The notes under the pieces were generated by a model. The model ran no database searches. It was not told the origin of the DNA and saw only the letters and a program-made list of their open reading frames with translations. A stretch of 14,589 nucleotides of DNA from Nitrososphaeraceae archaeon (GTDB lineage: Archaea > Thermoproteota > Nitrososphaeria > Nitrososphaerales > Nitrososphaeraceae): positions 1-14,589 of the forward strand of contig DATFEP010000057.1 of the NCBI GenBank assembly GCA_035250975.1, read 5' to 3'. Every line of letters begins with the position of its first letter. Position 1 is the stretch's first letter. Made by a program: the position numbers and the translations under genes. Below are positions 1-14,589 of this stretch, in pieces.

Positions 1-312
1 AAAATTCATATTCCTAATTTGGATGATGGAGAATTTGCTTTTGTGGAATGGTTAAATTCAGAAAATAAAAACTCTCCTGTTAATCATATGATACTTAAAA
101 GATATGAAAAAGATAAAGAATCTATTATAAATGATAATACTCTACATTCTGACGTGATAATAACCATCAATGATGGTGTTCCATTTTGTACATATTGTAA
201 AGATGATAGTTGTGCACATGTAGGATTTACAATATGTGTAATGCAATTGTCTGAAAGAAAAGGAATTCTGATAGGTGAAGATGAAAGTATTCTAGATTTA
301 CTGAAGGACTAA
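1..312 (+). CDS. Hypothetical protein with C-terminal CxxC-x4-CxH putative Zn-binding motif; possibly 5'-truncated by the window edge
   Basis: Frame is open from base 1 (KIHIPNL...), so the TTG at 19 may not be the true start. Contains CTYCKDDSCAHVGF. Stop TAA at 310-312, convergent with the antiporter. Confidence 0.7.
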   Translation, partial: KIHIPNLDDGEFAFVEWLNSENKNSPVNHMILKRYEKDKESIINDNTLHSDVIITINDGVPFCTYCKDDSCAHVGFTICVMQLSERKGILIGEDESILDLLKD

Positions 313-349
313 GATAATTAATACTGACATATGATTTACTATTAATTTT

Positions 350-1568
350 TTATTTATCATTTTCTTTTTCTTCATTTTTAGATGATAATATCTTGTCTGG
401 TAGTTTCCAACCTAGTTTAATCATATAAGGAGAGATAAATGTTGTAATTATGGTCATTGCTCCTATCATTGGAAGAAGAAATGTGCTTGTAAGACCTGTA
501 TCTGCTCCACCTTTTGCAACAACAAGTGCTAGTTCTCCTCCTGATGAAGATAAACCAAAAGCTGCCTTCATAGAAGTTGCTGAACTAAATCGTTGCGATT
601 TTGATGAGAAATACCGTTAGAAATTTAGCAGAAATTGAAACTATTACCAAGATTGAAGCTGGAATAACAAATACCACTAATAACGACATATCCATTAGTG
701 CACCAACAGATACAAAAAATATTGCCCCAAACATATCTCTAATTGGAGTTGCTAAAATTCTTGTAACTGCATGAACTTTTGATTCTGCTATCAGTACACC
801 AGCAAAGAATACACCCGTTGCTACTGAGATTCCTATTTGGTAAGATATAAAAGCTAACCCAAATGCCACCCCTAGAATCACTAGTATTAGAACCTCATGT
901 TGATTGAATTTTCCAATAAAATTGATAAATCTTGGTATAGTTTTTGATCCTAAAAACAAGACTCCAAAAATAAATGCAATTGTTATACTAATAGATATTA
1001 AAATATCAACAACCGATAAGTCCCCTGATGACGAACTAATAGATTGTAATACTGCCAACATTGAGATAATTAGGATATCTTCCATTACTGCTACTCCCAG
1101 AACTATATAAGACGCCTCTTCCTTGATTATATCAAGCTCTTCTAATACCTTCATAATAATAATGGTACTAGTAACTGAAATTGCAAGTGCAACAAATGCT
1201 GAATCGAAAAGTGAAAAATTTAGAAGAAAGAAACTTACAGAAAAACCTATCGCAAATGTTCCAAATGCTTCTGATGTTGCTATTGTTAATGCTTTCTTTC
1301 CAATCTTGCGTAGTTTGTCTATAGGAAATTCCATACCAACAACAAATAACAAAAGAATTATACCCATTTCTGCAAATAAATTCAAAATATCTAGATTTAA
1401 TATTAAACTAAATGGTGGAGTATGTGGACCGATGATCATTCCTGCAAGGATATAACCAATAACTAGCGGTTGTTTAAATTTAAATGAGATGAATGCCATG
1501 ACAGACGCGATAATCATAATAACTGAAAAATCTTGAATGAACTGTCCGACCTCAATACCAACAACCAT
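350..1568 (-). pseudogene. CPA2-family (Kef-like) cation:proton antiporter, frameshifted near 605-611 (pseudogene, sequencing error or recoding)
   Basis: The 330-aa ORF has CPA2 motifs (QPLVIGYILAGMIIGP, LLFVVGME, S.TST.I..K.L.E, MEDI, FFVSVG, AKF). The 73-aa ORF supplies the C-terminal helices (GGELALVVA ... TTFISPY). The downstream frame is open back to the junction (SSKSQRFSSATSMKAAF). Joined length is about 405-406 aa from ATG 1568; TTG 1577 is an alternative start. Confidence 0.85.
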
Positions 1569-1776
1569 TATAAACAAACTACAAAATAAAGAGTATAAGA
1601 ACTAAAGGAATTCGAAATTAAATATATTTATGGATAAATACTACAAGAATACTCCAAAAACCAATATATGTTATATTGTTTACTAGAACGGATCTTGATA
1701 ATACTCTTTCCAGTTTATGTTCTTTTAGCAGTCTACAATAAAATCCAAAAATATCTGTAATCCAGAGTACCTTTAT

Positions 1777-1810
1777 ACAGGAAAGCATCAAATAATAGAT
1801 GCTTTCTTGT
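1777..1810. other. Inverted repeat / hairpin in intergenic DNA
   Basis: ACAGGAAAGCATC-aaataata-GATGCTTTCTTGT: perfect 9-bp core (1781-1789 with 1798-1806), 13 bp with one G:T. Confidence 0.5.
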
Positions 1811-2326
1811 CAGTTTTGTACCAATCAACGTAAATAAATCTACTTTGCCATACAATAAAGTGTTGTATCAATTTAGTTACAGATTTATATAATATTCATT
1901 ATAAAACTTTGAAACATTATATTTTTATCAATTAAGTCAAGTCAACGGAGTCATTTATGTTTTTATTCTTTGTTTATCTATAGGACTTACAGATTATTTT
2001 TATATTTCTTCTATCGGTATAATTTCATAGTAAATTATCCATTTTTTTCATAAGAAATCTCTTGATATTGTAAATAAGAACCTTATAATATCTTATTTGA
2101 ACATAATTAAAAAGATAAAAAATATAAAATCAGAATTTATAGAAAGTCGATTTGTAATAAATATTACATTACATCTTTTTTAATACAATTGCAAAAAATA
2201 TATGTATACATCTCATGTATTATTATAATTGAACAGTCACGTATAAACGATATACTTCAACAAAATTTTAATTTGGTGTGACTAATATTTTTTGTATATT
2301 ACTGCGCTTTCTCAGCTGCCAATACA

Positions 2327-2335
2327 TTTTTAAAT
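2327..2335 (+). promoter_or_regulatory. Candidate archaeal TATA box for aIF-1A
   Basis: TTTTTAAAT about 27-35 nt upstream of the ATG at 2362. The AT-rich background limits specificity. Confidence 0.35.
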
Positions 2336-2371
2336 TACTCTATATCTAAATTAATTAAGGAATGATCAGAT

Positions 2372-2683
2372 TTAGGTAAAAGAAAAGTTTTGAATGAGGC
2401 TGAGCTTAAGGAGCTTGTGATGCCGCATGAAGGAGAAATGTTTGGAAGAGTTATCAAACTAGTAGGAGGAGATAACGTTATTGTAAAATGTACTGATGGA
2501 AAAATTCGTACATGTCGTATTCGTGGAAAAATTAAAAGACGAATGTGGATCAGAGAAAATGATCTAGTTCTTCTTGCTCCATGGGATTTTCAATCAGAAA
2601 AAGCTGATATTATCTGGAGGTATATTGCCGCTCACGCCGACAAATTAGAACAAGATGGTCATCTACAAGGATTAAATAAATAG
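2372..2683 (+). CDS. eif1a: Archaeal translation initiation factor aIF-1A (eIF1A); start uncertain (TTA 2372 or TTG 2390)
   Basis: OB-fold signature GRVIKLVGGD..VKCTDGKIRTCRIRGKIKRRMWIRENDLVLLAPWDFQ..KADIIWRY. The in-frame upstream extension reads TTA-GGT-AAA-AGA-AAA-GTT-TTG (L-G-K-R-K-V-L), bounded by TGA at 2363-2365. Confidence 0.93.
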   Translation, partial: LGKRKVLNEAELKELVMPHEGEMFGRVIKLVGGDNVIVKCTDGKIRTCRIRGKIKRRMWIRENDLVLLAPWDFQSEKADIIWRYIAAHADKLEQDGHLQGLNK

Positions 2684-2709
2684 ATATTATTATAACTATT
2701 TTATCCATT

Positions 2710-2734
2710 GCTTCAAATTTATTGCAATTTGAGC
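2710..2734. terminator. Possible hairpin between convergent aIF-1A and hisF
   Basis: GC(T)TCAAATT-tattgc-AATTTGAGC: 9-bp stem with a 1-nt bulge in the 74-bp convergent spacer. Confidence 0.25.
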
Positions 2735-2757
2735 TTTAACCAATAATGCTTTGTCTT

Positions 2758-3585
2758 TTATATTCTGACATGAATATTATTTCTTTTTAAGAATCTTTTT
2801 ACCTTATTTATTGTTGATTTTTCATAATGGAATATCGAGGCAGCTAATGCTGCATCTACATTCGTTTTTTTAAAGACTTCTAACATATGCATAGCTTTAC
2901 CACAGCCACCAGAAGCTATGACCGGAATACTTACTGTCTTACAAATAACATCATTCAATTTCAAATCATACCCTTCTTCTGTTCCATCTGCATCAATGCT
3001 TGTCAAAAGAATTTCACCCGCACCTAATTTTTCTACTTCTCGCGCCCATTCTATAGCATCTATACCAGTACCCTCTTTTCCACCGTAAATTCTTACCTCA
3101 AACCAGTATTTTTTAATCATATTATTATTCTTGTCATATTCTTTTATTATATTCTTTTTTTTGGTATCTAAATCATTATATTTTTTTTTAACGTCGATCG
3201 CAACAACTATACATTGTCTTCCAAAAATAGACATCAGCTCTGTGATTAATTCAGGATTCTTCACTGCACCTGTATTGATAGAGACTTTATCTGCTCCGCT
3301 TAATAGCATATCTCTCGCATCCTCAAGTCTCTTGATTCCGCCACCTACTGTAAATGGAATATCTATTACCCTTGCTACATTTCGTACTACTTTCTTTATT
3401 ATCTCGCGTCTCTGTTGTGAGGCTGTAATATCCAAGAAGACAAGTTCATCTGCTCCTTGTTGTGTATATCTATTAGCAAATTCTACCGGGTCGCCAGCAT
3501 CCTTTACTTCTTTAAACTTTATTCCCTTAACTACTCTTCCATTATCTACATCTAAACAAGGTATGATTCTCTTTGCTAATGTCAT
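2758..3585 (-). CDS. hisF: Imidazole glycerol phosphate synthase, cyclase subunit HisF
   Basis: [79 protein letters not shown]. Confidence 0.98.
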
Positions 3586-3588
3586 AAT

Positions 3589-4311
3589 TCAGACAACCGT
3601 TCTTGCTTTTTTTACATCTATTTTTCCATCATAAATGGACTTTCCAAGTATAACTGCAGAACAACCAATATTTTTTACTCTTATAATATCTTCAACACTT
3701 GAAATTCCCCCACTAGCAATTATTTTTGAACCGAAAATATTTGATGCGTAAGATAACATGTTTATATCAGGTCCATTTAAAGTACCATCCCTTTCTACTG
3801 TTGTTAACAAAAATTCTTTGATTCCTTTTGCCATAAAGAGCTTTACTGCTTCACTTACTTTAAATCCAGAGGGCCGTCTCCATCCATCAATCATTACTAT
3901 TCCCTTATTTTGATCTATTGAAACAATTATCTTCTCCAATTTTTCTTTTGGAACTTGTTGAAAGACATTTGGCTGTTTATATGCCAATGTTCCAATCACA
4001 ATTTTTTCTGCATTTCCATACAACATCTCGTTAATAGCTTCAATTGATCTTATTCCTCCTGCCACTTGAACAGGAATTTTTACTGATTCTATAATTTTCA
4101 ATACTATATCTTTGTTGTTTTTGTTGTCATTCCATCCTGTTCTTAATGTAGCATCGAGATCTACAACATGTATTCTGTCAACTTCATAACTTTCAAAATT
4201 TTTTGCAATTTCAATAGGATCATTACTATAAACAATTTTGTTTTGCGGATCTCCCTTAATCAATCTTACAACTTTTCCCTCAAGAATATCAATAGCAGGT
4301 ATTATTTTCAT
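3589..4311 (-). CDS. hisA: ProFAR isomerase HisA
   Basis: MKIIPAIDILEGKVVRL..G, HVVDLD, VQVAGGIRS, VSID, ERDGTLNG, IIASGG. ATGA overlap with the hisH stop. Confidence 0.96.
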   Translation of the reverse strand: MKIIPAIDILEGKVVRLIKGDPQNKIVYSNDPIEIAKNFESYEVDRIHVVDLDATLRTGWNDNKNNKDIVLKIIESVKIPVQVAGGIRSIEAINEMLYGNAEKIVIGTLAYKQPNVFQQVPKEKLEKIIVSIDQNKGIVMIDGWRRPSGFKVSEAVKLFMAKGIKEFLLTTVERDGTLNGPDINMLSYASNIFGSKIIASGGISSVEDIIRVKNIGCSAVILGKSIYDGKIDVKKARTVV

Positions 4312-4928
4312 TTTTTATTATCACACACATTTAAAAAATTTTTGATTATTTTTTCTCCATTATTACCAGATTTTTCAGGATGAAATTGTGTTCCGAATAT
4401 ATTGTCTTTTTCGATAACAACGGGTATATCTTTTCCATAAATAGATTTGGCAACTATTATATCTTTATTCACAGGAACGATGTAATATGAATGAACAAAA
4501 TATGCCCATGCCTCATTTTCTATTCCAGATAAAATTTTACTATCTTTATTAGTTATATCAAGATTGTTCCAACCCATATGCGGAATTTTAACTTTCTTTT
4601 TAGGTAGCATAATTACGTTACCATCAAAAATTCTCAATCCTTCTAATTCTCCTTCTTCACTTTTTTTAAATAACATTTCCATTCCTAAGCAAATTCCAAG
4701 TACGGGAATCTTCCTATCTATGAGATCACAAAAATTTTCTCTATATGGTTCAATTGATCTTATTGCAGGATCAAAATTTCCAACTCCTGGAAGAATCAAT
4801 CCATTATATCTATTAACATTTTTTAAGGTTTTAATAATTGAAACATGTTTAGCTCCATTTCTTTCTAACGCACATTTCAGACTATATAAATTGCCAGCAC
4901 CATAATCAAAAATTGCTATATCACTCAC
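4308..4928 (-). CDS. hisH: Imidazole glycerol phosphate synthase, glutamine amidotransferase subunit HisH
   Basis: DYGAGN, LPGVG, GICLGM (nucleophile Cys), PHMGWN, YFVHSY, QFHPEKS. GTG start 3 nt after the hisB stop. Confidence 0.97.
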   Translation of the reverse strand: MSDIAIFDYGAGNLYSLKCALERNGAKHVSIIKTLKNVNRYNGLILPGVGNFDPAIRSIEPYRENFCDLIDRKIPVLGICLGMEMLFKKSEEGELEGLRIFDGNVIMLPKKKVKIPHMGWNNLDITNKDSKILSGIENEAWAYFVHSYYIVPVNKDIIVAKSIYGKDIPVVIEKDNIFGTQFHPEKSGNNGEKIIKNFLNVCDNKK

Positions 4929-4931
4929 TAT

Positions 4932-5549
4932 CTACATTACACCTTTTGTACTTGGGATGTCATTTTGTTTGGGATCTATCTTAACAGCCATTCGAAATGC
5001 TACTGCAAAAGCCTTCATCGCCGCTTCAATCTTGTGGTGATCGTTGTCTCCATATTGAACATAAACGTGAATACATCCATTTATATTTTGTAACAAACTC
5101 TCAACGAAATGTTCTAAATCTTCCTTGGGTATTCCTTCAACTTCTTTTCTTGCAAGTCCTAAACTCGATTTAGAATATTGTCTTTTAACAAGATCAATCG
5201 ATGAAACAGCCACTGATTCGTCCATAGGAATAGTTGCATATCCAAATCTACTAATTTTTGTCCTATCTGATAGGGCATTATTTATTGCTTGACCAATAGT
5301 TATTGCTACATCTTCTATTAGGTGATGAGATATTTTGTCGTTTGATTTTGCTTCCAAGTTGATATCTGTCATACTGTGTTTACCAAATGTTGATACGAGA
5401 TGATCAATAAACGGATATCCTGTTCTAATGTTAACTAATCCTGTTCCATCGATATTAACTTCTACTTTAATGCTCGTCTCTTTGGTATTCCTTTCTTTCT
5501 TCATATGCCTCATGTAAGATACATTGGTATCAGGAGAATCAGAATTCAA
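4932..5549 (-). CDS. hisB: Monofunctional imidazoleglycerol-phosphate dehydratase
   Basis: RNTKET, FIDHL, HHLIED, PMDES, NDHHKIEA..KA, PSTKG. No N-terminal phosphatase domain. ATG at 5513 is an alternative start. Confidence 0.96.
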   Translation of the reverse strand: MNSDSPDTNVSYMRHMKKERNTKETSIKVEVNIDGTGLVNIRTGYPFIDHLVSTFGKHSMTDINLEAKSNDKISHHLIEDVAITIGQAINNALSDRTKISRFGYATIPMDESVAVSSIDLVKRQYSKSSLGLARKEVEGIPKEDLEHFVESLLQNINGCIHVYVQYGDNDHHKIEAAMKAFAVAFRMAVKIDPKQNDIPSTKGVM

Positions 5550-5564
5550 CTAAGTATATTTTTA

Positions 5565-6614
5565 TCATACTTTATTTAATACATTTGGTAAATTGTTAAT
5601 ACTTTTAATAATAAAATCTGCATTTTTATCTTTAAATTTGTTAATTAATTCTTGTTGATTAGTGCTACAGCCATACACTCCACAAAAAAATACTTTTCTT
5701 CTTTCACCTTTTTTCCTCTTTGTTAGATTTACCTCTCTTTCGGCTCTTTTAGCCATTATTGAATCCTCAATCGAATCTCCACAATATATAATGTCATCAT
5801 TAAAACCCATACATTTCATTACTGTTATCAAACCATGTGGATTTGGTTTGGCATATCTTCTTTTTTCATCTTCAAGAAATATGCTCTTATTGCCATTTAA
5901 CAATATGAATTTTCTTCCTAACGAAAACTTAGCAGCGATCTTACTCCTTCCAGAAACCATTGCAATCTTGCCATCGAATTTATTCGACAAAGCTCTAATA
6001 GTATTGTTAGTAATTATTATCTTGTCATTTTCTATTAATGGTTTACCAAAATAATAGGTTGTGTCAAATCCATATTTCATTCTAAATAATTTTTGTCCAT
6101 AAAAAAATTCATCAAATACCGTAGAAACTATACTTTTTCCAACTGGTCCAGGATAATTCAAATATTTTTTGATTTTATCAAAATCTAAATCATTTTTCTC
6201 TGACAATTTTTTACTAGAGTAATTTAATGATTTTTTCAAAAATTTTTCGACGGATATTATTCCACAATCATCCGAATTCTCTGCTGTTCTAAAAAGAAAT
6301 CTTTTCAAATCATCATTTTGCAAATTAGAATTTAATAACAAAGTAAGAGTAATAGCATAGCTTGTATCTGTATCGTTGTTAAATCCTCCTGATTGTCTAA
6401 ATCTCGAAATTATATTGTCTGAAACAATATTTTTGGAACCATATGTTTTCAAATGATTTGTTATAAATCGTGTTGTTTTTTTTATCGCTTCGTTATAAGA
6501 TTTTCTGACATCTATCAATACTCCATCAATATCAACAATAATAGAAGTGACTCTAATGTTATTATATTTTGTATTCGAGGAAATGAAATCTGTCTCTGTT
6601 ATTTTGTTATACAT
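5565..6614 (-). CDS. HAD-superfamily hydrolase in the his operon; candidate histidinol-phosphate phosphatase
   Basis: Motif I DIDGVLIDV, cap GGFNND, motif II VSGR, motif III KPNP, motif IV GDSIED. Overlaps the hisC stop by 8 nt and is followed by hisB. Confidence 0.85.
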   Translation of the reverse strand: MYNKITETDFISSNTKYNNIRVTSIIVDIDGVLIDVRKSYNEAIKKTTRFITNHLKTYGSKNIVSDNIISRFRQSGGFNNDTDTSYAITLTLLLNSNLQNDDLKRFLFRTAENSDDCGIISVEKFLKKSLNYSSKKLSEKNDLDFDKIKKYLNYPGPVGKSIVSTVFDEFFYGQKLFRMKYGFDTTYYFGKPLIENDKIIITNNTIRALSNKFDGKIAMVSGRSKIAAKFSLGRKFILLNGNKSIFLEDEKRRYAKPNPHGLITVMKCMGFNDDIIYCGDSIEDSIMAKRAEREVNLTKRKKGERRKVFFCGVYGCSTNQQELINKFKDKNADFIIKSINNLPNVLNKV

Positions 6615-7689
6615 TATATACCTTGTGTAATACTTTCAGAAACCTATCATTCATTTCTTTCGTTCCAATTGTTACTCTAATATATCTTCCTTCTCTACCT
6701 TCAATTTTTCCTAATGCTTTTACCCTGATTTTTTCCTTTTCTAATGTTTCTAGAATTGTAATATATTTATCAATATCTATGATCTGGATGAAGATAAAAT
6801 TAGTATCGCTTTTAAAAACTCGTATTCGATTTTTTGTAGATTTTAAATGGTTATATATACATTCTCTTTCCTTTTTAATTACTTTTACAACATCTTTAAT
6901 ATAGTCAGAATTTTTCAAAATTTCAGTGCCTATACATAGTGATAAGGTATTGATAGGATAGGGAGATTGTATAACCGATTTGAAAATATTTGTGAATTTC
7001 TCATTGGAAATACAATAACCCAATCTTGCCCCTGCCAAACCAACTGCTTTCGATAATGTTCTCAAAACTATAACATTGTCTTTTTTTATTATATTCGCAG
7101 CAATCGAATAATTAGCAAATTCTACATATGCCTCATCTATTATTATCAGTTTATCATCTAACTGATTAATAATTTCTAATAATTGTCCTTTTTCTATCTG
7201 ATTTCCTGTAGGATTATTTGGTGAACAAATATATATTATTTGAGATTTTTTTGCACTCTTGATGAATTCTGGTTTATCCAGAGAGTTATCTTCCTTTTGA
7301 AGGGGTACTTTATCTACTGTAACAGAATAAAGCTTACACCTATCTACAAAGTATGTAAATGTAGGAGTAAAAGTAGTTACTCGATTCTTTTTTCCAAAAA
7401 TTGATAATACCAGATCTATTATCTGATCAGAACCATTGCCTATCGATAAATACTTTTTACTTATTTTTGTATATTGTGATAGTGCCATGTAGAAGTCTTC
7501 AACCTGTTGTAATGGGTATTCTCTTAGATCAACTTCTTTTGATACTTTTAATGCAATATCTCTAATGAAGTCACTTTTTAAAACAAGATTTTCATTAGAG
7601 TCTAATTTTATTCCATCATTTTTTTTAGGTTTGATATATGCTTCAATTTTGACTAATTCATTAAATCTTTTTTCAAGCCAATTTTGCAT
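6607..7689 (-). CDS. hisC: Histidinol-phosphate aminotransferase
   Basis: KLDSNEN, GNGSDQII, CSPNNPTG, IDEAY, RTLSKAVGLAGARLGY (PLP Lys), IRVTIG; operon context. Confidence 0.95.
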   Translation of the reverse strand: MQNWLEKRFNELVKIEAYIKPKKNDGIKLDSNENLVLKSDFIRDIALKVSKEVDLREYPLQQVEDFYMALSQYTKISKKYLSIGNGSDQIIDLVLSIFGKKNRVTTFTPTFTYFVDRCKLYSVTVDKVPLQKEDNSLDKPEFIKSAKKSQIIYICSPNNPTGNQIEKGQLLEIINQLDDKLIIIDEAYVEFANYSIAANIIKKDNVIVLRTLSKAVGLAGARLGYCISNEKFTNIFKSVIQSPYPINTLSLCIGTEILKNSDYIKDVVKVIKKERECIYNHLKSTKNRIRVFKSDTNFIFIQIIDIDKYITILETLEKEKIRVKALGKIEGREGRYIRVTIGTKEMNDRFLKVLHKVYNV

Positions 7690-7703
7690 AACTAATTTTC
7701 ATC

Positions 7704-9023
7704 TCATTTTTTCTTTCTTGTTTGTGAAATATCTATGAGTCTTTCCTTGACTGCTTCATAATGATTGACAAGTCCTTCTTCTTGTGTTATTGTTTTGATA
7801 AAAGGTTCTATTTTTTTTAGGTCATTTTTGTTAGATTTTATAATAGTTGAAAACCTAATAAAGTCCAATACAGAAAGTGATGCACGTGATTTCCCAAAAC
7901 CCATGGTAGGAAGAACGTGATTGGAACCTAAACAATAATCACTTGCAGAAGAAGGTGTATTTTCGCCTATTAGTATTAGACCTGCAGAGTTAATTTTTCT
8001 TGATATATTTAACTCTTTTATAGACATAATTTGTAAATGTTCTGGAGCTATCTCATTAACAAAATCTATTGCTAAATCATCATTTTCAGCTATTGCAATA
8101 AATCCATTTTTATTTAAACTTTCTGAAACAAATTCTTTACGTGATATATTTTTTTTCAGAATTTTATTGACCTCATTTTGTACTTTATCAGCAAATTCCA
8201 ATGAATTTGTAACTACTCCACATAGGGTGTCTTTGCTGTGTTCTGCCTGAGAAACTAAATCTAATGCAACATACCTAGGATTCGTTTCTGAACTCGCATA
8301 AATAACCAATTCTGTTGGACCAGCCATCATATCTATCGATACTTTGTTTGAAACCAATAACTTTGCCATTGTAACGAAAATTCCTCCTGGTCCAACTATT
8401 TTGTCAACACTCTTAATACTATGTGTACCAAAAGCTAATGCCGCTATACCTTGTGCTCCTCCTACCTTGTAAAATTCATTTATGCCACAAATATCTGCTG
8501 CAACTAATGTTAAAGGATCTACATTTCCATTCTTTTGTGGAGGAGAAATAGCCACAAGTCTTTTTACACCAGCCAGTTTTGCTGGTGTTGCACACATAAC
8601 CAATGTACTTGGATATCTTGCAAGACCTCCTGGAATATAACAACCAACACTTGAAATTGGTTGAACAAATCGTTTAATCCTTCTATTATTTGAATATAAA
8701 GAGGATATTTTTTTAATATGTTCTAGAAAAATAATATCGTTTTCAATTAATGTCTCTCTTATTTTGTATATGGTTTTAACTTGTTTATCTGTGACTTTTT
8801 TGTAAGCGTCTTTTATTTCATCTTTATTTACTCTTATTGAATCAACCATAACTCTGTCATATTCATATGTGTATTTTTTAAGAGCATGATCTCCATCCTT
8901 CCTTACATTACCTATTATTTCTCCTACCTTTTTGATAATGTCTTCAGAAAAATTATCGATTGTATTATACCTTATATTCTCTACATCGTCTTTAGGATTC
9001 TTGATAACTATTTTTTTAATCAA
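7704..9023 (-). CDS. hisD: Histidinol dehydrogenase
   Basis: GCYIPGG..YPST, GGAQGIAALAFGT, KIVGPG, AGPTE, QAEH, APEHL, DY..GSNHVLPT. TTG start directly after the hisG TAG. Confidence 0.97.
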   Translation of the reverse strand: MIKKIVIKNPKDDVENIRYNTIDNFSEDIIKKVGEIIGNVRKDGDHALKKYTYEYDRVMVDSIRVNKDEIKDAYKKVTDKQVKTIYKIRETLIENDIIFLEHIKKISSLYSNNRRIKRFVQPISSVGCYIPGGLARYPSTLVMCATPAKLAGVKRLVAISPPQKNGNVDPLTLVAADICGINEFYKVGGAQGIAALAFGTHSIKSVDKIVGPGGIFVTMAKLLVSNKVSIDMMAGPTELVIYASSETNPRYVALDLVSQAEHSKDTLCGVVTNSLEFADKVQNEVNKILKKNISRKEFVSESLNKNGFIAIAENDDLAIDFVNEIAPEHLQIMSIKELNISRKINSAGLILIGENTPSSASDYCLGSNHVLPTMGFGKSRASLSVLDFIRFSTIIKSNKNDLKKIEPFIKTITQEEGLVNHYEAVKERLIDISQTRKKK

Positions 9024-10007
9024 CTAACCATCTTCTTTATCTATCTTTATTTCTTCAAAAGGCAATATCTGCGTTGGTTGCAGTACTACCAATCCTTGAG
9101 CAATCTTTCTCATAACTGGAACGATTTTTATGAATTCATTCTTGTCGATTATTGTATTAACTCCATACCACCCTTCCTCACTCAAAGCGCTGATTGTTGG
9201 ACGTTTCAATGCCGGCAGTCTACCAAGTAGCTCATCTAAATTCTCCTTCTTTACATTTACAAAAATATGAAGTTTTTTCCTTGCTTCGACAACTCCTCTC
9301 AACAAAGCGATCATATCTATAATTTTTTCTCTTTTTTTATCGTCTTGTATAGACTGTTTGTTTGCTATAACAACAGAACTTGATTCCATTATAGTATCTA
9401 TTATTTTTAGATTATTTTGGACCAAAGTTGTTCCAGTTTCTGTAATATCGCATATTGCATCAACATCCTCGGGCGGTTTAGCCTCCGTTGCGCCAAAAGA
9501 AAGGAAAATTTCTACATTCTTATTTTCTCCAATTCTTATCCAAGGTGTAATTATCATTGGATCATTATCTCCAAAATATTTTTTATAGGCTGAATTGGAT
9601 TTTATATGATCTGCTATCGTTGTAAGGTATTCAGAAGATATTCTTAACGGTTTTTTGTTTTTTGCATATTCAGCGATCATATCATCCAAATTGTTAAACT
9701 GAAAATTTTCAGGAATTGCAATTACCTGTTTAACTTTACCATACTCTAAATCTAGCAATATTTTTACATCGGCTCTTGCTTCCTTTATCCAGTCCTTTCC
9801 AGTGATACCTATATCATATAGTCCTTCTTGTACATAAGTGGGAATTTCCTGTGGTCTTAAAAGTTTAACCTCTATTTCAGGATCACTCAGTTTTATTCTA
9901 TATGTTCTTGATTTTCCACTGACTTTTTGCCAAGCCTCTTCTAATATCTTAAAAGTTGCCTCTTCGATAGTTCCCTTTGGTACAGCGAATTTAACTACAG
10001 CAGGCAT
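9024..10007 (-). CDS. hisG: ATP phosphoribosyltransferase, long form with C-terminal regulatory domain
   Basis: FAVPKG, RPQEIPTYV..G.YDIGITGKD, GATEAK, DAICDITETGTTLVQNNL, C-terminal LPALKRPTISAL domain. Confidence 0.97.
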   Translation of the reverse strand: MPAVVKFAVPKGTIEEATFKILEEAWQKVSGKSRTYRIKLSDPEIEVKLLRPQEIPTYVQEGLYDIGITGKDWIKEARADVKILLDLEYGKVKQVIAIPENFQFNNLDDMIAEYAKNKKPLRISSEYLTTIADHIKSNSAYKKYFGDNDPMIITPWIRIGENKNVEIFLSFGATEAKPPEDVDAICDITETGTTLVQNNLKIIDTIMESSSVVIANKQSIQDDKKREKIIDMIALLRGVVEARKKLHIFVNVKKENLDELLGRLPALKRPTISALSEEGWYGVNTIIDKNEFIKIVPVMRKIAQGLVVLQPTQILPFEEIKIDKEDG

Positions 10008-10034
10008 AAATGTACAAGAAAAAATTGTTCATCC

Positions 10035-10044
10035 GATATATATC
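10035..10044 (-). promoter_or_regulatory. Candidate TATA box for hisG (palindrome GATATATATC)
   Basis: Lies 28-37 nt upstream of the hisG ATG in the 51-bp hmgA-hisG gap, which fits a leaderless or short-leader transcript. Confidence 0.35.
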
Positions 10045-10058
10045 TAATTGTTAAGAGA

Positions 10059-11384
10059 CTAAATTCTATTTGAATTCAATAATTCAATTATCTCTTTAGC
10101 CTTGCTTACACTAACATTTTTTTCTTTTATTAGTCTTTCAGCTATAATATTCACTTGATTTTCTTCTGCTCCAGCTGTAAGAGCTATATTTCTCGCATGT
10201 AATTTCATATGACCCTTCTGAATTCCTTCATTAGTCAATGCCCTGATAGCGGCAAAATTTTGAGCCAAACCTATTGCAGCAAAAATCGATGCAAGTTCCT
10301 TGACATTTTTTATATCTAAAATCTTTAATACAACTTTTACTATGGGATGTACCGATATTATTCCTCCAATAATTCCAATAGCCATAGGTATCTCTATTTC
10401 TCCAATCAAGTCTCCATCTTTAGATTTATACCATTTTGTTAATGATCTATACTTTCCATCTCTTGCAGCATACGCATGTATAGATGCTTCAAGAGCTCGA
10501 AAATCTTGTCCAGTTGCTATTGCTAAAGCATCAATACCATTCATTATACCCTTATTATGAGTAACTGCTCGAAACGTATCAGAATATGCGAAAGCATAAG
10601 CTAAGAGAATTCTATTTACTCCTTCAGATCCACCTATCATCTCTTTGGGAAAAGTTGCTTTACATCTTGCCAATCGATTTACAGAATAATTTGATAATAT
10701 CTTGAGAACTACTTCTCCAATGGATAATTTTTCAATCTTCGAAGCAATCGATTCACACATAGTATTGATAACATTAGCCCCCATCGCATCTTTTGTATCA
10801 ACTATTAATTCTATTATTATCATATAACCCATATTGTTAATACTCTCATCTAATATCTCTCGAACCTGAATATCTTTAGCTACTACAGTTCTACTCTTCA
10901 AATTTGCGATCTTTAAAAGTTCCTCTTTATTATCTGTAATTATTTTTCTTAACCGTTCTCTCTCCTTCTTACTTGCAAATAGATCTTTGTGATTCCTCTT
11001 TCTTGCTACTAGCAGAATTTGTCCTATCATTATTGATTCATCAGCTTCAGCTATGAAACCTCCTGCCATCTTGGCGATCTTAGCCGCCTTACTTGCAGCT
11101 GCAATAACTGAAGGTTCCTCTGTCGAAACTGGTATCAAATATTTTTTTCCATTAATTACAAAATTCGTAGCAATTCCTAATGGAATCGGAATTATTCCTA
11201 TTGCATTTTCTACCATGTTGTTAATTTTGTTAAAGGAAAAATTTTTGGGCATATCTTTTAATAATTGTAAATCCTTTTTTGTTATTTTAGTTTCATTTTG
11301 AATAAAATCTAGTCTCTCATCCAGATCTAATTCATAAAATTTTTTAAATGAATTGTCATTTCGCTGCATTTTACCATTTTTCAC
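10059..11384 (-). CDS. hmgA: HMG-CoA reductase, class II (bacterial/'degradative' type)
   Basis: ENAIG, TEEPSVIAAAS, DAMGAN, ILSN, THNKGIMNG, TGQDFRA, GIQKGHMKLHARN plus C-terminal flap. GTG 11384 or ATG 11369 start. Confidence 0.95.
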   Translation of the reverse strand: MKNGKMQRNDNSFKKFYELDLDERLDFIQNETKITKKDLQLLKDMPKNFSFNKINNMVENAIGIIPIPLGIATNFVINGKKYLIPVSTEEPSVIAAASKAAKIAKMAGGFIAEADESIMIGQILLVARKRNHKDLFASKKERERLRKIITDNKEELLKIANLKSRTVVAKDIQVREILDESINNMGYMIIIELIVDTKDAMGANVINTMCESIASKIEKLSIGEVVLKILSNYSVNRLARCKATFPKEMIGGSEGVNRILLAYAFAYSDTFRAVTHNKGIMNGIDALAIATGQDFRALEASIHAYAARDGKYRSLTKWYKSKDGDLIGEIEIPMAIGIIGGIISVHPIVKVVLKILDIKNVKELASIFAAIGLAQNFAAIRALTNEGIQKGHMKLHARNIALTAGAEENQVNIIAERLIKEKNVSVSKAKEIIELLNSNRI

Positions 11385-11391
11385 AAATTAA

Positions 11392-12501
11392 CTAAGGTTT
11401 GAGTATTTTTAAAATCTTATCGTCGTTGTCTTGAGGGATACCTCTTCCATCTGTGTTACTTGTCAAAATGTATAAAGAACCATCATTTCCCTCAACTACG
11501 TCTCTTAGCCTTCCATAACCTACCAATACGTTATTCTGTTCATGTGAATCGATGTCTATTTGTCTTAAATGAGATCCCTTTAAGCTAGTGACGATAAGAT
11601 CATTTTTATATCCTAATTTATTGGATGATGCAAAAGTTATTCCACTAGGTGCTATGGCCGGATTAAAGCAGAAAATAGCCTTTTCAAAATCCTTTGTTCC
11701 TTCACATTTCACGTTAGGCCATCCGTAATTTTTTCCTGCTATTATTAAATTTATTTCATCAAAACCAGATGGACCATGTTCGGATACATACATACTTTTG
11801 TTTTCTAGATGCCATGAAATTCCTTGAATGTTTCTATGTCCCAATGAATATACAGGTGAATTCTTGAATGGATTGTCTTCTGGAATTGTTCCATCTAAAT
11901 TAACACGTAATATCTTGCCTGCAAGTGAAGAAAGATTTTGTGCAAGGTGTGGCTTCGAAGCATCTCCTGTTGGGATATATAATTTATTATCTGGTCCAAT
12001 CTTTATTCTCCCTCCGTTATTGTATAAAGATCCTGGTATAGAATCAATTATTATTTTTGAATCTATAATTTTATTATCTTTTTCTTTTAAAAGAAGTACT
12101 TTGTTAAAGAGCTCGTTTCCATTGGTATAAGTATGATAAATATACATTAGATGATTCTCAGTAAAATTAGGATGTAACACAATTCCTAATAGCCCCGAAC
12201 CACCCTTTTGTTCTACTCTTATGAATGCAACTGGTTCGTCAAGAATATTTCCATTAGTATCTATCGTTCTTATTTTTCCATCTCTTTCGGTAAAAAAAAT
12301 CCTATTATCTTTAGATGTTTCAATGGCCCAAGGAGAGTCTAGATTCTCTGCAATGATCTCTATCCCCTTATTGGAGCCTGTTTTATTTAGTAATGATTCT
12401 GGTTCTGGCAGAGGAATATTGGTGTCAGATGGAGTCATAAGAATTGTTACAATACCAACCATTGCCACAAATATCGCTATAATAAATAATCTCTTATCCA
12501 T
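11392..12501 (-). CDS. GSDH / soluble-aldose-dehydrogenase-family PQQ-type beta-propeller with N-terminal membrane anchor
   Basis: Hydrophobic N-terminus; L.SPWA, GLLGIVLHPNF, GGRIKIGPD..LY..TGD, GKILR, GHRN.QG, EHGP..DEIN, NYGWP, APSG, GRLRDV. Confidence 0.92.
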   Translation of the reverse strand: MDKRLFIIAIFVAMVGIVTILMTPSDTNIPLPEPESLLNKTGSNKGIEIIAENLDSPWAIETSKDNRIFFTERDGKIRTIDTNGNILDEPVAFIRVEQKGGSGLLGIVLHPNFTENHLMYIYHTYTNGNELFNKVLLLKEKDNKIIDSKIIIDSIPGSLYNNGGRIKIGPDNKLYIPTGDASKPHLAQNLSSLAGKILRVNLDGTIPEDNPFKNSPVYSLGHRNIQGISWHLENKSMYVSEHGPSGFDEINLIIAGKNYGWPNVKCEGTKDFEKAIFCFNPAIAPSGITFASSNKLGYKNDLIVTSLKGSHLRQIDIDSHEQNNVLVGYGRLRDVVEGNDGSLYILTSNTDGRGIPQDNDDKILKILKP

Positions 12502-12591
12502 TTTTTAAACTGATTAATATGCAAGTTATCTGAAGCATAATAAATTTCATTTTCAAAAATCATAATTCGTCTATCCACAAAATTATTTTTT

Positions 12592-12599
12592 AAAAAAAA
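12592..12599 (-). terminator. Oligo-T terminator after tRNA-Ser
   Basis: T8 on the minus strand, starting one base (12600) after the discriminator. Confidence 0.6.
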
Positions 12600-12600
12600 G

Positions 12601-12724
12601 CGCAGATGAGGAGATTTGAACTCCTGCTCGCCCGAAGGCGAATCGGCTGGCTCTTAACCTTGAAGATTACTCAAGGCCGACGCATTATTGTGTTCCTAAT
12701 GGAAGACCACTCTGCCACATCTGC
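12601..12724 (-). tRNA. tRNA-Ser(TGA) with two introns (D-loop 20/21 at 12687-12705; canonical 37/38 at 12649-12669)
   Basis: Acceptor stem GCAGATG/CATCTGC with discriminator G; T-arm AGGAG-TTCAAAT-CTCCT; long variable arm TCGCC-TTCG-GGCGA; anticodon stem TCGGC/GCCGA with CT-TGA-G|A. Removing 19 and 21 nt gives an 84-nt class II tRNA with D-arm GCAG-AGTGGTA-ATGC. CCA is not encoded. Confidence 0.88.
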
Positions 12725-13037
12725 ACAACAAATAAGCTAAATTACTTATTATTATATTTTAATAATATACTTTATCAAAGCCGATTGATATTTATCTTTT
12801 TTCAAATATATTGAAAAACTGTGAATATTAAAAAAGTAGAATAATACTATTGATAACTACTGTTCCATTTTCACTTAAAATGTTGAAAATCAAAATAAAT
12901 GTATATTGTTGTCTCTAAATTAAAAAATATAAGATAGTAATTCACAGGATTATCAAATTTTGGTCTATCATTGATAATTTTAATTTATAATCATTAACTA
13001 ATATCTACTAATGTGTATATCAACTCGAAACAAAGTA

Positions 13038-13061
13038 AATAAACATATGTTGATGTTTATT
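13038..13061. promoter_or_regulatory. 9-6-9 inverted repeat upstream of the DegT gene; possible operator
   Basis: AATAAACAT-atgttg-ATGTTTATT, 42-65 nt upstream of ATG 13103. Confidence 0.3.
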
Positions 13062-13102
13062 ACAAAAACTTAATTACTTTAAATAATCAGCTAAAATATA
13101 AA

Positions 13103-14236
13103 ATGATTCCAATTAATAGACCATGGATTGATGATGAAGAGAAACAAGAAGTTATGCGAGTTCTTGATGAAAATATTCTTACAAGTGCATCTAGAGATGG
13201 TGGCAAGAGAGTACAAGAATTTGAATCATCTTTGAAAGGTTTTTTGAACGTAAAGCATGTGATTTCGGTAAATTCTGGTACAGCTGCTTTGCATGCTTCT
13301 TTACTTGCTATAGGTATTACCTCTGGAGATGAAGTGTTACTTCCATCATTTACATTTGTAGCTACCGCAAATTCTGTTATTGCGGCAGGTGCAAAACCAG
13401 TTTTTGTGGATATTAATAAAAAAGATTATACAATTGATATTCCAGACTTAAAGAAAAAAATTACAAAGAAGACAAAGGCCATGATTCCTGTTCATTTATA
13501 TGGTCATCCAGCTGATTTAGATGAACTGGCAGAAATTTCAAAACAAAATTCTTTCGATATTATAGAAGATGCTTGTCAATCTTTAGGTTCTACTTATAAA
13601 AATAAACAAACTGGAACCTTTGGTAAATTAGGATGTTTCAGTTTTTATGCTAGTAAGGTTTTAACAGCCGGAGAAGGAGGAGCAATTGTAACAAACGATG
13701 ATAAAATTGCAGACACATTAAAAATGATAAGAAATCATGGAATGGTCGAAGGGTATGATACACGTATTCCTGGATTTAATTATCGACTTCCAGAACTAAG
13801 TGCTGCTCTCGCAAAGATACAAATGAGGAAAATAAACCAAATATTAGAAATTCGAAGAAGAAATTCTCAATTATTGTCCAATTTTATTGAAAGATCAATT
13901 TCAAATTTTCAAGTATTAAATATTCCAGAAGAAAATCATATCAAAAAATTTAATTGGTATCTTTATACATTGGATTTCATTGGAAAAAAAGGTTCTGAAT
14001 TAAGGGAACGTATCAAGAAAAAGATGATTGAGGGTGGAATAGGCGTTTCAGTATACTACGACCCTCCAGTTCATCTTACTCCATATTATAAACAATTTAG
14101 TTTTGAAGGAAGTCTGACCAATACTGAATCGGCCAGTAAAACAGTATTATCATTTCCTGTACATCCATATGTCACAGAAACTGATGTTGAAAAGATGGTA
14201 AATATATTAAAGGAAGAATTATCAATTTTTGTTTGA
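13103..14236 (+). CDS. DegT/DnrJ/EryC1/StrS-family PLP-dependent (nucleotide-sugar) aminotransferase
   Basis: NSGTAALH, GDEV..PSFTFVATA, PVHLYG, IEDACQ, FSFYASK (PLP Lys), GEGGAI, GFNYR, LSFPVHP. Confidence 0.95.
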   Translation: MIPINRPWIDDEEKQEVMRVLDENILTSASRDGGKRVQEFESSLKGFLNVKHVISVNSGTAALHASLLAIGITSGDEVLLPSFTFVATANSVIAAGAKPVFVDINKKDYTIDIPDLKKKITKKTKAMIPVHLYGHPADLDELAEISKQNSFDIIEDACQSLGSTYKNKQTGTFGKLGCFSFYASKVLTAGEGGAIVTNDDKIADTLKMIRNHGMVEGYDTRIPGFNYRLPELSAALAKIQMRKINQILEIRRRNSQLLSNFIERSISNFQVLNIPEENHIKKFNWYLYTLDFIGKKGSELRERIKKKMIEGGIGVSVYYDPPVHLTPYYKQFSFEGSLTNTESASKTVLSFPVHPYVTETDVEKMVNILKEELSIFV

Positions 14237-14245
14237 TTTTTTTTT
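14237..14245 (+). terminator. Oligo-T terminator after the DegT gene
   Basis: T9 immediately after the TGA stop. Confidence 0.55.
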
Positions 14246-14308
14246 ATAATTTATAATTATTATTTGATATAGAACCAAAAATTATTTTTTATTTTGAAAG
14301 AACAAACT

Positions 14309-14318
14309 TTTTTATAAT
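14309..14318 (+). promoter_or_regulatory. TATA box for amt
   Basis: TTTTTATAAT at -33 to -24 from ATG 14342, preceded by A-rich sequence (AAAGAACAAAC); fits a leaderless transcript. Confidence 0.5.
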
Positions 14319-14341
14319 ACTATGTGGATTATGCAACAGGA

Positions 14342-14589
14342 ATGGCATTAGATACTGGTGATACTGCATGGATGATTGTTGCAACAGGTCTTGTAATGTT
14401 GATGACACCCGGGCTCGGATTCTTTGAAGCTGGTTTAATAAGATTCAAAAACGGTCTTTCGGCAATTATGCACACGTTTTCTGGATTAGCAATTGTTTCC
14501 ACTCTCTGGTTTATCGTTGGATTCACGCTAACTTTTGGACCCGATCAAGGAGGCATAATAGGAGGTCTAGATCATGTCTTCTATAATGG
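14342..14589 (+). CDS. amt: Ammonium transporter (Amt), 5' part, truncated by the window end
   Basis: Translated by hand: MALDTGDTAWMIVATGLVMLMTPGLGFFEAGLIRFKNGLSAIMHTFSGLAIVSTLWFIVGFTLTFGPDQGGIIGGLDHVFYN, the classic Amt N-terminus (DTAW...LMTPGL.FF..G..R.KN ... W...G..L.FG). In-frame GTG at 14324 is an alternative start. Confidence 0.96.
   Translation, partial: MALDTGDTAWMIVATGLVMLMTPGLGFFEAGLIRFKNGLSAIMHTFSGLAIVSTLWFIVGFTLTFGPDQGGIIGGLDHVFYN

Follow-up and report, generated by a model that had tools for sequence, protein, structure and literature searches.

A conserved UUA or AUA codon as the probable translation start of the initiation factor gene aIF1A in the archaeal family Nitrososphaeraceae

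The gene for translation initiation factor aIF1A in a 14,589-nucleotide (nt) stretch of DNA from a Nitrososphaeraceae archaeon (assembly GCA_035250975.1, contig DATFEP010000057.1, positions 1 to 14,589; this whole stretch is referred to as the window) raises the question of where and how its translation begins, as no ATG, GTG or TTG codon (the canonical starts) stands in front of the conserved N-terminus of its product. This feature had been pointed out in an initial annotation made from the letters alone, and both the reading frame and an alignment of the family agree with it. An aIF1A gene with a hardly workable start is in effect a natural experiment on how the archaeal ribosome chooses its starts. 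In the window, the aIF1A frame runs TGA (2363-2365) TCA GAT TTA (2372-2374) GGT AAA AGA AAA GTT TTG (2390-2392), with the translation ...KE*SDLGKRKVLNEAELK, and the earliest canonical codon inside the open frame is the TTG at 2390. Because the TGA lies in frame, only TCA, GAT and TTA are left as possible starts upstream of the GKRKV tail. The comparisons reported here indicate that translation very probably begins at the TTA, that is, at UUA 2372 of the mRNA. The parts of the gene are the following.

2363-2365, forward strand: in-frame TGA stop, three codons ahead of the TTA, from reading of the frame.
2372-2374, forward strand: TTA, proposed non-canonical initiation codon of aIF1A, which aligns with ATG, GTG or TTG of other families.
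2372-2683, forward strand: proposed coding sequence of aIF1A, 103 codons followed by a TAG stop, from the PF01176 match, the end of the open reading frame (ORF) and the onset of conservation.
2375-2389, forward strand: codons of the basic GKRKV tail, with near-invariant residues and many synonymous codons in 121 sequences.
2390-2392, forward strand: TTG, the first canonical in-frame start (Leu 6), invariant in the genus and a possible secondary start in this genus only.
2432-2620, forward strand: eIF-1a OB-fold domain (PF01176), residues 23-85 of the translation of 2366-2680.

The product matches the Pfam family eIF-1a (PF01176) over profile positions 1-64 of 64, with a score of 78 bits (cut-off 30.2; E 3e-22), and has a basic N-terminal tail, GKRKV, right behind the proposed start and conserved in the 121 sequences compared below. 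The genome (a 2.49-Mb assembly in 91 contigs, 30.6% G+C) holds one copy of the gene, which forms a unit by itself and has a TATA box of its own. A sequencing error at 2360-2380, a concern raised with the initial annotation, can be set aside, since the stretch is identical in two further genomes of the genus (G016 and G019), contigs assembled from RNA in public metatranscriptomes match the DNA letters over 2368-2403 without an indel, with A at 2374 in the contigs from four studies, and TTA or ATA recurs at this site in 120 of 121 family sequences.

For the comparison, 41 related genomes formed the first set (gene present in 38), to which we added 80 more 5' regions and 80 named records from Nitrososphaeraceae, Nitrososphaera or Nitrosopolaris assemblies; in an order-wide search the gene was found in 283 of 301 genomes, a tally that includes two genomes whose 5' regions were left out. 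With a strict motif the site could be located in every one of 162 family loci and of 28 loci from other families, and removal of duplicates left 122 distinct family sequences, 121 of them with full upstream sequence. Within Nitrososphaeraceae the codon before the Gly was TTA in 84, ATA in 36 and TTG in one of these 121, and never ATG or GTG; the named records taken alone gave TTA 67, ATA 12 and TTG 1 (n = 80). The lone TTG variant (L143) occupies exactly the same position as TTA or ATA elsewhere. All 22 loci from the genus of the window have TTA before GGN-AAA-AGA-AAA, within a conserved block aaggaaggattaga(t/a)-TTA-GGN, and Nitrososphaera genomes with two or three aIF1A copies have TTA or ATA in each copy. 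In the other families of the order the aligned codon was ATG 12, TTG 7, GTG 3, ATA 4, TTA 1 and ATC 1 (n = 28), and in the sister family f13 it was canonical in 30 of 30 loci (ATG 15, GTG 11, TTG 4). Aligning the 5' regions of relatives, as the initial annotation had proposed, thus places the initiator position exactly on TTA 2372, and the result that would have spoken against it, canonical starts in all relatives, was not obtained. Nitrososphaera paralogues are of GKRK and GKKK types (L054/L089, L056/L088, L057/L061/L065, L063/L064).

The onset of conservation at this codon is sharp. Across the 121 sequences amino acids are 95-100% conserved from the Gly on, and in-frame positions -2 and beyond hold 7 to 20 different residues. 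The tail, which might have turned out not to be conserved, is invariant or nearly so, and is written with 4 codons for Gly, 2 for Lys, 7 for Arg/Lys, 3 for Lys/Arg and 4 for Val; since the amino acids stay fixed under free synonymous change, the GKRKV tail is translated. The Leu at +5 uses six codons and position +10 seven (six for Leu and one other), whereas the codon before the Gly is fixed as TTA or ATA and CTN was never found there, which argues that TTA is not an ordinary Leu codon. Neighbouring two-fold A/G sites are saturated (Lys AAA 80, AAG 41; Glu GAA 85, GAG 36), and the third base of the proposed start is A in 120 of 121. Upstream in-frame stops come close, often at a distance of 0-3 codons: a TAA stands directly before the ATA in L064, and at several named loci the stop is only one codon ahead of the start codon, with no canonical codon in between. 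The sharp onset, the nearby stops and the canonical codons aligned in the sister family together make TTA 2372 very probably the start, and this was also the option, among those offered in the initial annotation, that the comparative data favoured. The alignment points to constraint at the nucleotide level on [T/A]TA exactly where relatives carry their initiator codon, and it clearly indicates that selection keeps the aIF1A start non-canonical.

The explanation that we regard as probable is that translation starts at UUA 2372, that the initiator tRNA reads this codon inefficiently, and that the start is kept weak by selection. The leader would position the small ribosomal subunit at the UUA, the normal initiator tRNA, with its CAU anticodon, would read UUA or AUA inefficiently, and the product would be Met-Gly-Lys-Arg-Lys-Val..., with the basic N-terminal tail intact. 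The use of the initiator tRNA, Met as first residue and the low efficiency are steps that we infer. Since the third-position A is held by selection, a weak start would be what is wanted; it would either simply throttle aIF1A synthesis or couple this synthesis to the stringency of start choice, the latter being a negative feedback of the kind described for infC (AUU start) or eIF1 (poor context). An initiator-like anticodon arm with CAU (GCGGG-CTCATAA-CCCGC) is present in the genome on the minus strand of contig C43, near position 4520 of the reverse strand. No complete initiator tRNA was found in the genome by ARAGORN, which called only 19-22 tRNAs, and the uncalled arm in C43 suggests an initiator tRNA gene with non-canonical introns.

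The sequences that would bring the ribosome to this codon lie within a short interval upstream of it.

2327-2334, forward strand: TATA-like box TTTTTAAA of the aIF1A promoter, from conservation in the genus.
2355-2365, forward strand: predicted 5' end of the transcript, from archaeal promoter geometry.
2357-2371, forward strand: short leader AAGGAATGATCAGAT with the Shine-Dalgarno-like AAGGA and TGATC, from pairing with 16S rRNA.

As the 16S gene of this genome holds the 5' half only, the 3' end shared by four relatives (...GGATCACCTCCTT) was used for pairing. The predicted duplex with the leader has -10.0 kcal/mol in the window and -8.0 kcal/mol for the usual leader of the genus, AAGGAAGGATTAGAT. 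Family leaders average -6.7 kcal/mol vs -4.25 for shuffled ones, and 84% are stronger than the mean of their own shuffles. Pairing is strong in genus g22 (GGGAGGT 7 nt before TTA, -11.9 kcal/mol) and weak in Nitrososphaera (-3 to -4.7), and well-spaced Shine-Dalgarno-like leaders are seen in g22 (GGGAGGTTTTTAAA-TTA) and g18 (TGATCCAAA-ATA). Single leader positions are also well conserved: 86% of TTA-class leaders carry G at -9 and 92-95% carry T at -6/-5, every TTA-class leader and 89% of those in the ATA class have a purine at -3, and position -2 is A in 93-97%. A family-specific decoding aid may operate, for example a modified C34 in the initiator tRNA or the GG-T-rich leader itself with its purine at -3 and A at -2.

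Further observations concern the leader. The pattern GG-(T/G)-(T/A)-TT-N-R-A (2362-2371; aligned leaders L031-L090) is conserved beyond any Shine-Dalgarno match. A GAGGTTTTCAAN leader also occurs with ATA or ATC starts in another family (L092, L093, L095); ATG-start members of that family mostly lack it, and L023 has a partial form, GTTTTCAAA.

The TATA-like element that the initial annotation had placed upstream of the gene held up: it is TTTTTAAA, conserved within a promoter block acaTTTTTAAAttac among the loci of the genus, and it ends 37 nt ahead of the TTA, a distance that sets the window gene apart from leaderless ones, for which a box some 22-27 nt before the start codon is expected. 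With a consensus set picked ad hoc, 109 of the 118 family sequences that were scored had such an 8-mer ending 30-38 nt ahead of the start, whereas in f13 the box (cacaATTATATA; L196-L225) ended 20-22 nt before the canonical start in 16 of 28 scored loci. The centre of an archaeal TATA box lies about 26-27 nt upstream of the transcription start site. From these distances and the usual spacing, aIF1A mRNAs of f13 are probably leaderless, and those of Nitrososphaeraceae would carry a leader of about 8-15 nt. Contigs assembled from RNA (four studies) start at 2368, 2373, 2384 and 2387 and end at 2686-2750; one of them has adapter sequence and three bases before 2368, and none extends upstream of about 2365, a weak hint that the transcript begins near 2355-2365. 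Between f13 and Nitrososphaeraceae the non-canonical start accompanies the gain of a leader.

Whether the weak start also senses the state of initiation is best considered beside known systems. Bacterial infC, encoding IF3, begins with AUU and is autoregulated because IF3 discriminates against non-canonical starts. Eukaryotic eIF1, through a poor AUG context, and eIF5, through upstream ORFs (uORFs), autoregulate initiation stringency. The aIF1A gene resembles infC as an initiation-factor gene with a group-wide conserved non-canonical start (TTA or ATA in 120 of 121), a product that takes part in start selection, and a putative Shine-Dalgarno-type leader preceding the weak start; it differs in being archaeal, in encoding a homologue of IF1 instead of IF3, in the use of UUA or AUA instead of AUU, and in that feedback is only proposed for it. 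With eIF1 and eIF5 it shares a sub-optimal initiation signal on a start-selection factor; unlike these, which have AUG in a poor context or conserved uORFs in scanned leaders, the aIF1A codon itself is non-canonical, the leader would be only some 7-15 nt long and no uORF is conserved. The review PMC6412873 describes aIF1, aIF1A and aIF2 as acting directly in start-codon selection, includes aIF1A in the shared structural core of the initiation complex, and considers that its short basic N-terminal tail might stabilise codon-anticodon pairing. Given the place of aIF1A in the start-selecting core and the precedents of infC, eIF1 and eIF5, its synthesis may respond to initiation stringency. We therefore regard a feedback sensor at this start as possible, though still tentative, and the wider proposal, that UUA and AUA are genuine selected starts throughout Nitrososphaeraceae acting as a built-in stringency sensor, as somewhat unlikely in that full form. 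If true, the infC/eIF1 logic of self-limiting fidelity factors would extend to archaea and to the universal IF1/aIF1A family, the feedback of infC/eIF1 would have an archaeal counterpart, and this would be the first case outside organelles of a UUA start conserved in a cellular gene. If UUA is used at all, start-codon rules are looser than assumed in the soil ammonia oxidisers, an ecologically important group.

Several points weigh against a UUA start that acts as a sensor. UUA has two mismatches to the CAU anticodon and would be expected to work very poorly as a start, a surprising choice for an essential factor. The sequences compared are kin, so that the counts overstate the number of independent events, and most of the genomes are metagenome bins. 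Assembled RNA contigs can neither define transcript ends nor exclude rare edited forms. A second, tail-less product could be made from TTG 2390 in this genus. Finally, the case for the weak start being specifically a fidelity sensor is weakened, since other genes also seem to have near-cognate starts. One is the gene of a P-loop kinase (..FIICLTGMPGAGK..; minus strand of contig C89, 12332-12904, L296; L297-L317), with ATT, ATC or ATA at the start position in 22 loci of the genus, a strong AGGTGA 7 nt upstream, in-frame stops 3-6 codons upstream, and ATG or TTG in other families. In addition, no canonical codon was available in 7 of 240 and 6 of 246 aligned N-termini of a stricter test, some of these probably artefacts.

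The last two figures come from a screen that compared stop-to-stop ORFs of this genome with 2.4 Mb of the complete genome G041 (genus g18). The shadow-ORF filter and the thresholds were our own, and only N-termini with conservation across four codons or more could be picked up. In 913 of 1,053 ortholog pairs the alignment had no column ahead of the first canonical start, and in 49 it had four or more. After inspection, aIF1A and the P-loop kinase were the credible cases without a canonical start in both genomes. In the stricter test, which took genes where the first canonical start of one genome coincides with the onset of conservation, the partner codon was canonical in 198 of 240 and 196 of 246. 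Near-cognate starts therefore appear, from these counts, to occur at a low rate in both genomes, and aIF1A stands out by its UUA and by family-wide retention. The odd start is not general to factor genes of the genus either, as aIF1 (SUI1) begins with an ordinary ATG at each of its 23 loci there. Most other start-less pairs that ranked high turned out to be shadow ORFs on the antisense strand, leaders that are conserved, or genes with a canonical start a few codons off; a citrate-lyase-like gene and carA were among the candidates dismissed on inspection, and a supposed ATA start of carB proved to be a canonical GTG. Putative further cases are a HemC-like gene of G041 with GTT vs ATG, a 754-amino acid (aa) protein with ATA vs ATG, and three ATT genes of this genome.

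The near-cognate start of the kinase and the few per cent of such aligned N-termini are also what favours the strongest of the alternatives, namely that the weak UUA or AUA start merely sets a constitutively low translation of aIF1A, or is simply tolerated, without any stringency feedback. We consider this quite possible. Mere tolerance fits poorly with the near-absolute third A across genera next to saturated A/G sites, which shows active selection against a canonical start, and with the Nitrososphaera paralogues, all of which have TTA or ATA; neither of these points separates a limit on dosage from feedback.

Dual initiation in this genus, with the full protein made from UUA 2372 and a tail-less 97-aa isoform from UUG 2390, seems unlikely, although the TTG is a canonical start and the nine nucleotides TTG-AAT-GAG (2390-2398) do not change in any of the 23 distinct sequences of the genus, where other nearby Leu and Glu codons vary. 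This invariance may reflect a secondary start or an element at the RNA level. The sample is small and its members related, no suitably spaced Shine-Dalgarno-like motif precedes 2390 except the leader itself, and other genera have TTA or CTN in its place, which takes this route out of consideration as a mechanism of the family. For the same reason, and because GKRKV stays under protein-level selection, reinitiation at TTG 2390, one of the routes suggested in the initial annotation, is not a general way to the protein.

The initial annotation had also drawn attention to a 5-codon uORF overlapping the start region as a possible means of autoregulation.

2362-2379, forward strand: clade-specific 5-codon ORF ATG ATC AGA TTT AGG TAA (MIRFR), out of frame with aIF1A; the ATG is present in L001-L003 only.

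The ORF is indeed there and overlaps the beginning of aIF1A, but it is not conserved, its ATG being limited to 3 of 22 loci of the genus (the window, G016 and G019), and no uORF conserved in the manner of eIF5 was found. Two substitutions (G to T and T to C) convert the genus norm GGATTAGAT into TGATCAGAT in the window clade, turning GGATT into TGATC, which matches the anti-Shine-Dalgarno and takes the duplex from -8.0 to -10.0 kcal/mol; the same change makes the in-frame TGA. Judged from the aligned leaders, the uORF ATG is a by-product of changes that strengthen the duplex with the 3' end of 16S rRNA, and lies outside the conserved mechanism. We regard as improbable that the uORF of the window clade is translated from ATG 2362 to its TAA stop (2377-2379), with reinitiation at UUA 2372 or UUG 2390, a coupling by which the weak start would be supplied with ribosomes in this clade. 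It is true that a canonical codon stands 10 nt upstream in 19 of 122 distinct family sequences (g18, g25 and the window clade), with stops within a few bases of the start, as in TTG ATT TAA A ATA or in the mini-ORF ATG ATC AGA AAT AGG TAA of L033, which is nearly identical to that of the window. Yet the 18 nt upstream of the start hold ATG in only 15 of 122 and no canonical codon at all in 71 of 122, the match of (T)GAT(C) to the anti-Shine-Dalgarno explains the conservation of these letters without a uORF, and ATG 2362 may fall at or before the 5' end of the transcript.

The remaining alternatives fare worse. It is very unlikely that TTG 2390 or Met 16 is the sole start of the protein, with the GKRKV region an untranslated leader conserved for RNA reasons: gene callers do pick the TTG and its 97-aa product, but invariant residues with many synonymous codons are a protein-coding signature, and several lineages have no canonical codon before Met 16. 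Scarcely plausible is A-to-I editing of the mRNA to UUG- or AUG-like codons, which would account for the constant third-base A, or else an assembly error or pseudogene: position 2374 is A in the RNA contigs (in which minor forms can go unseen), a tRNA-Arg(GCG) is encoded in the genome (ARAGORN) and archaea are generally not known to edit adenosine 34, more than 120 independent assemblies give the same reading, and purifying selection acts on the ORF, which is intact. Barely conceivable, finally, is the programmed +1 frameshift at TTT-AGG-T put forward in the initial annotation, giving MIRF-GKRKV...: the TTT AGG T is present and bears a superficial likeness to the Ty1 site named there, but its ORF0 has a start in 3 of 22 loci of the genus, neither a conserved ORF0 nor a shift site of the Ty1, prfB or antizyme type was found in the family, and TTTAGG merely reads the letters of GAT-TTA-GGT, becoming ATAGG in ATA-type genera; with the uORF not conserved, a +1 shift is not the family's way to the protein.

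A UUA start bears on how the gene is recorded in databases. Sister-family aIF1A is the same PF01176 protein with the GKRKV tail, at 57-72% identity; it differs by its canonical start (30 of 30) and nearer TATA box from the Nitrososphaeraceae gene, where the box lies 30-38 nt before a non-canonical codon. NCBI translation table 11 allows ATA as a start, and at least one NCBI record, P0044 (MGKKKV...), maps to an ATA locus (L180), whereas TTA is an allowed start in no standard table for cellular genomes. The ATA form is already annotated as a start in NCBI records, and the TTA form is mis-annotated wherever we examined it: database aIF1A proteins of the group measure 89-162 aa, and the calls for TTA-type genes begin at the downstream TTG (P0013, 97 aa), at the GTG Val codon (P0052) or at a chance upstream ATG (P0029, P0010). 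With such inconsistent calls, the database proteins lose the basic tail or gain spurious residues. In literature searches that covered few subscription journals, UUA or TTA starts came up in reports on mitochondrial genomes only. Searches on non-canonical starts of aIF1A, and on transcription start sites, leaderless mRNAs or initiation-factor start codons in Nitrososphaera, found no description of such a start, and a term search of the review PMC7531240 gave no hit for autoregulation, AUA or UUA.

A separate observation concerns carB, which encodes the large subunit of carbamoyl-phosphate synthase. Between ...IKIGEAGE and FDYSGSQ... the gene contains a short insert (C80:46673-46695; L406:1478-1500), for which no description was found in the literature search. 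It is 23 nt long in this genome; across the order it measures 21-52 nt in 26 of 28 resolved loci and is absent from two, two further loci being unresolved (L407-L434). The insert has conserved ends (GGCGAA|AGT...ACCGCTAA|TTT), a central hairpin with compensatory changes, in-frame stops, and lengths that are often not multiples of three, and by these features it resembles an mRNA mini-intron of the bulge-helix-bulge type.

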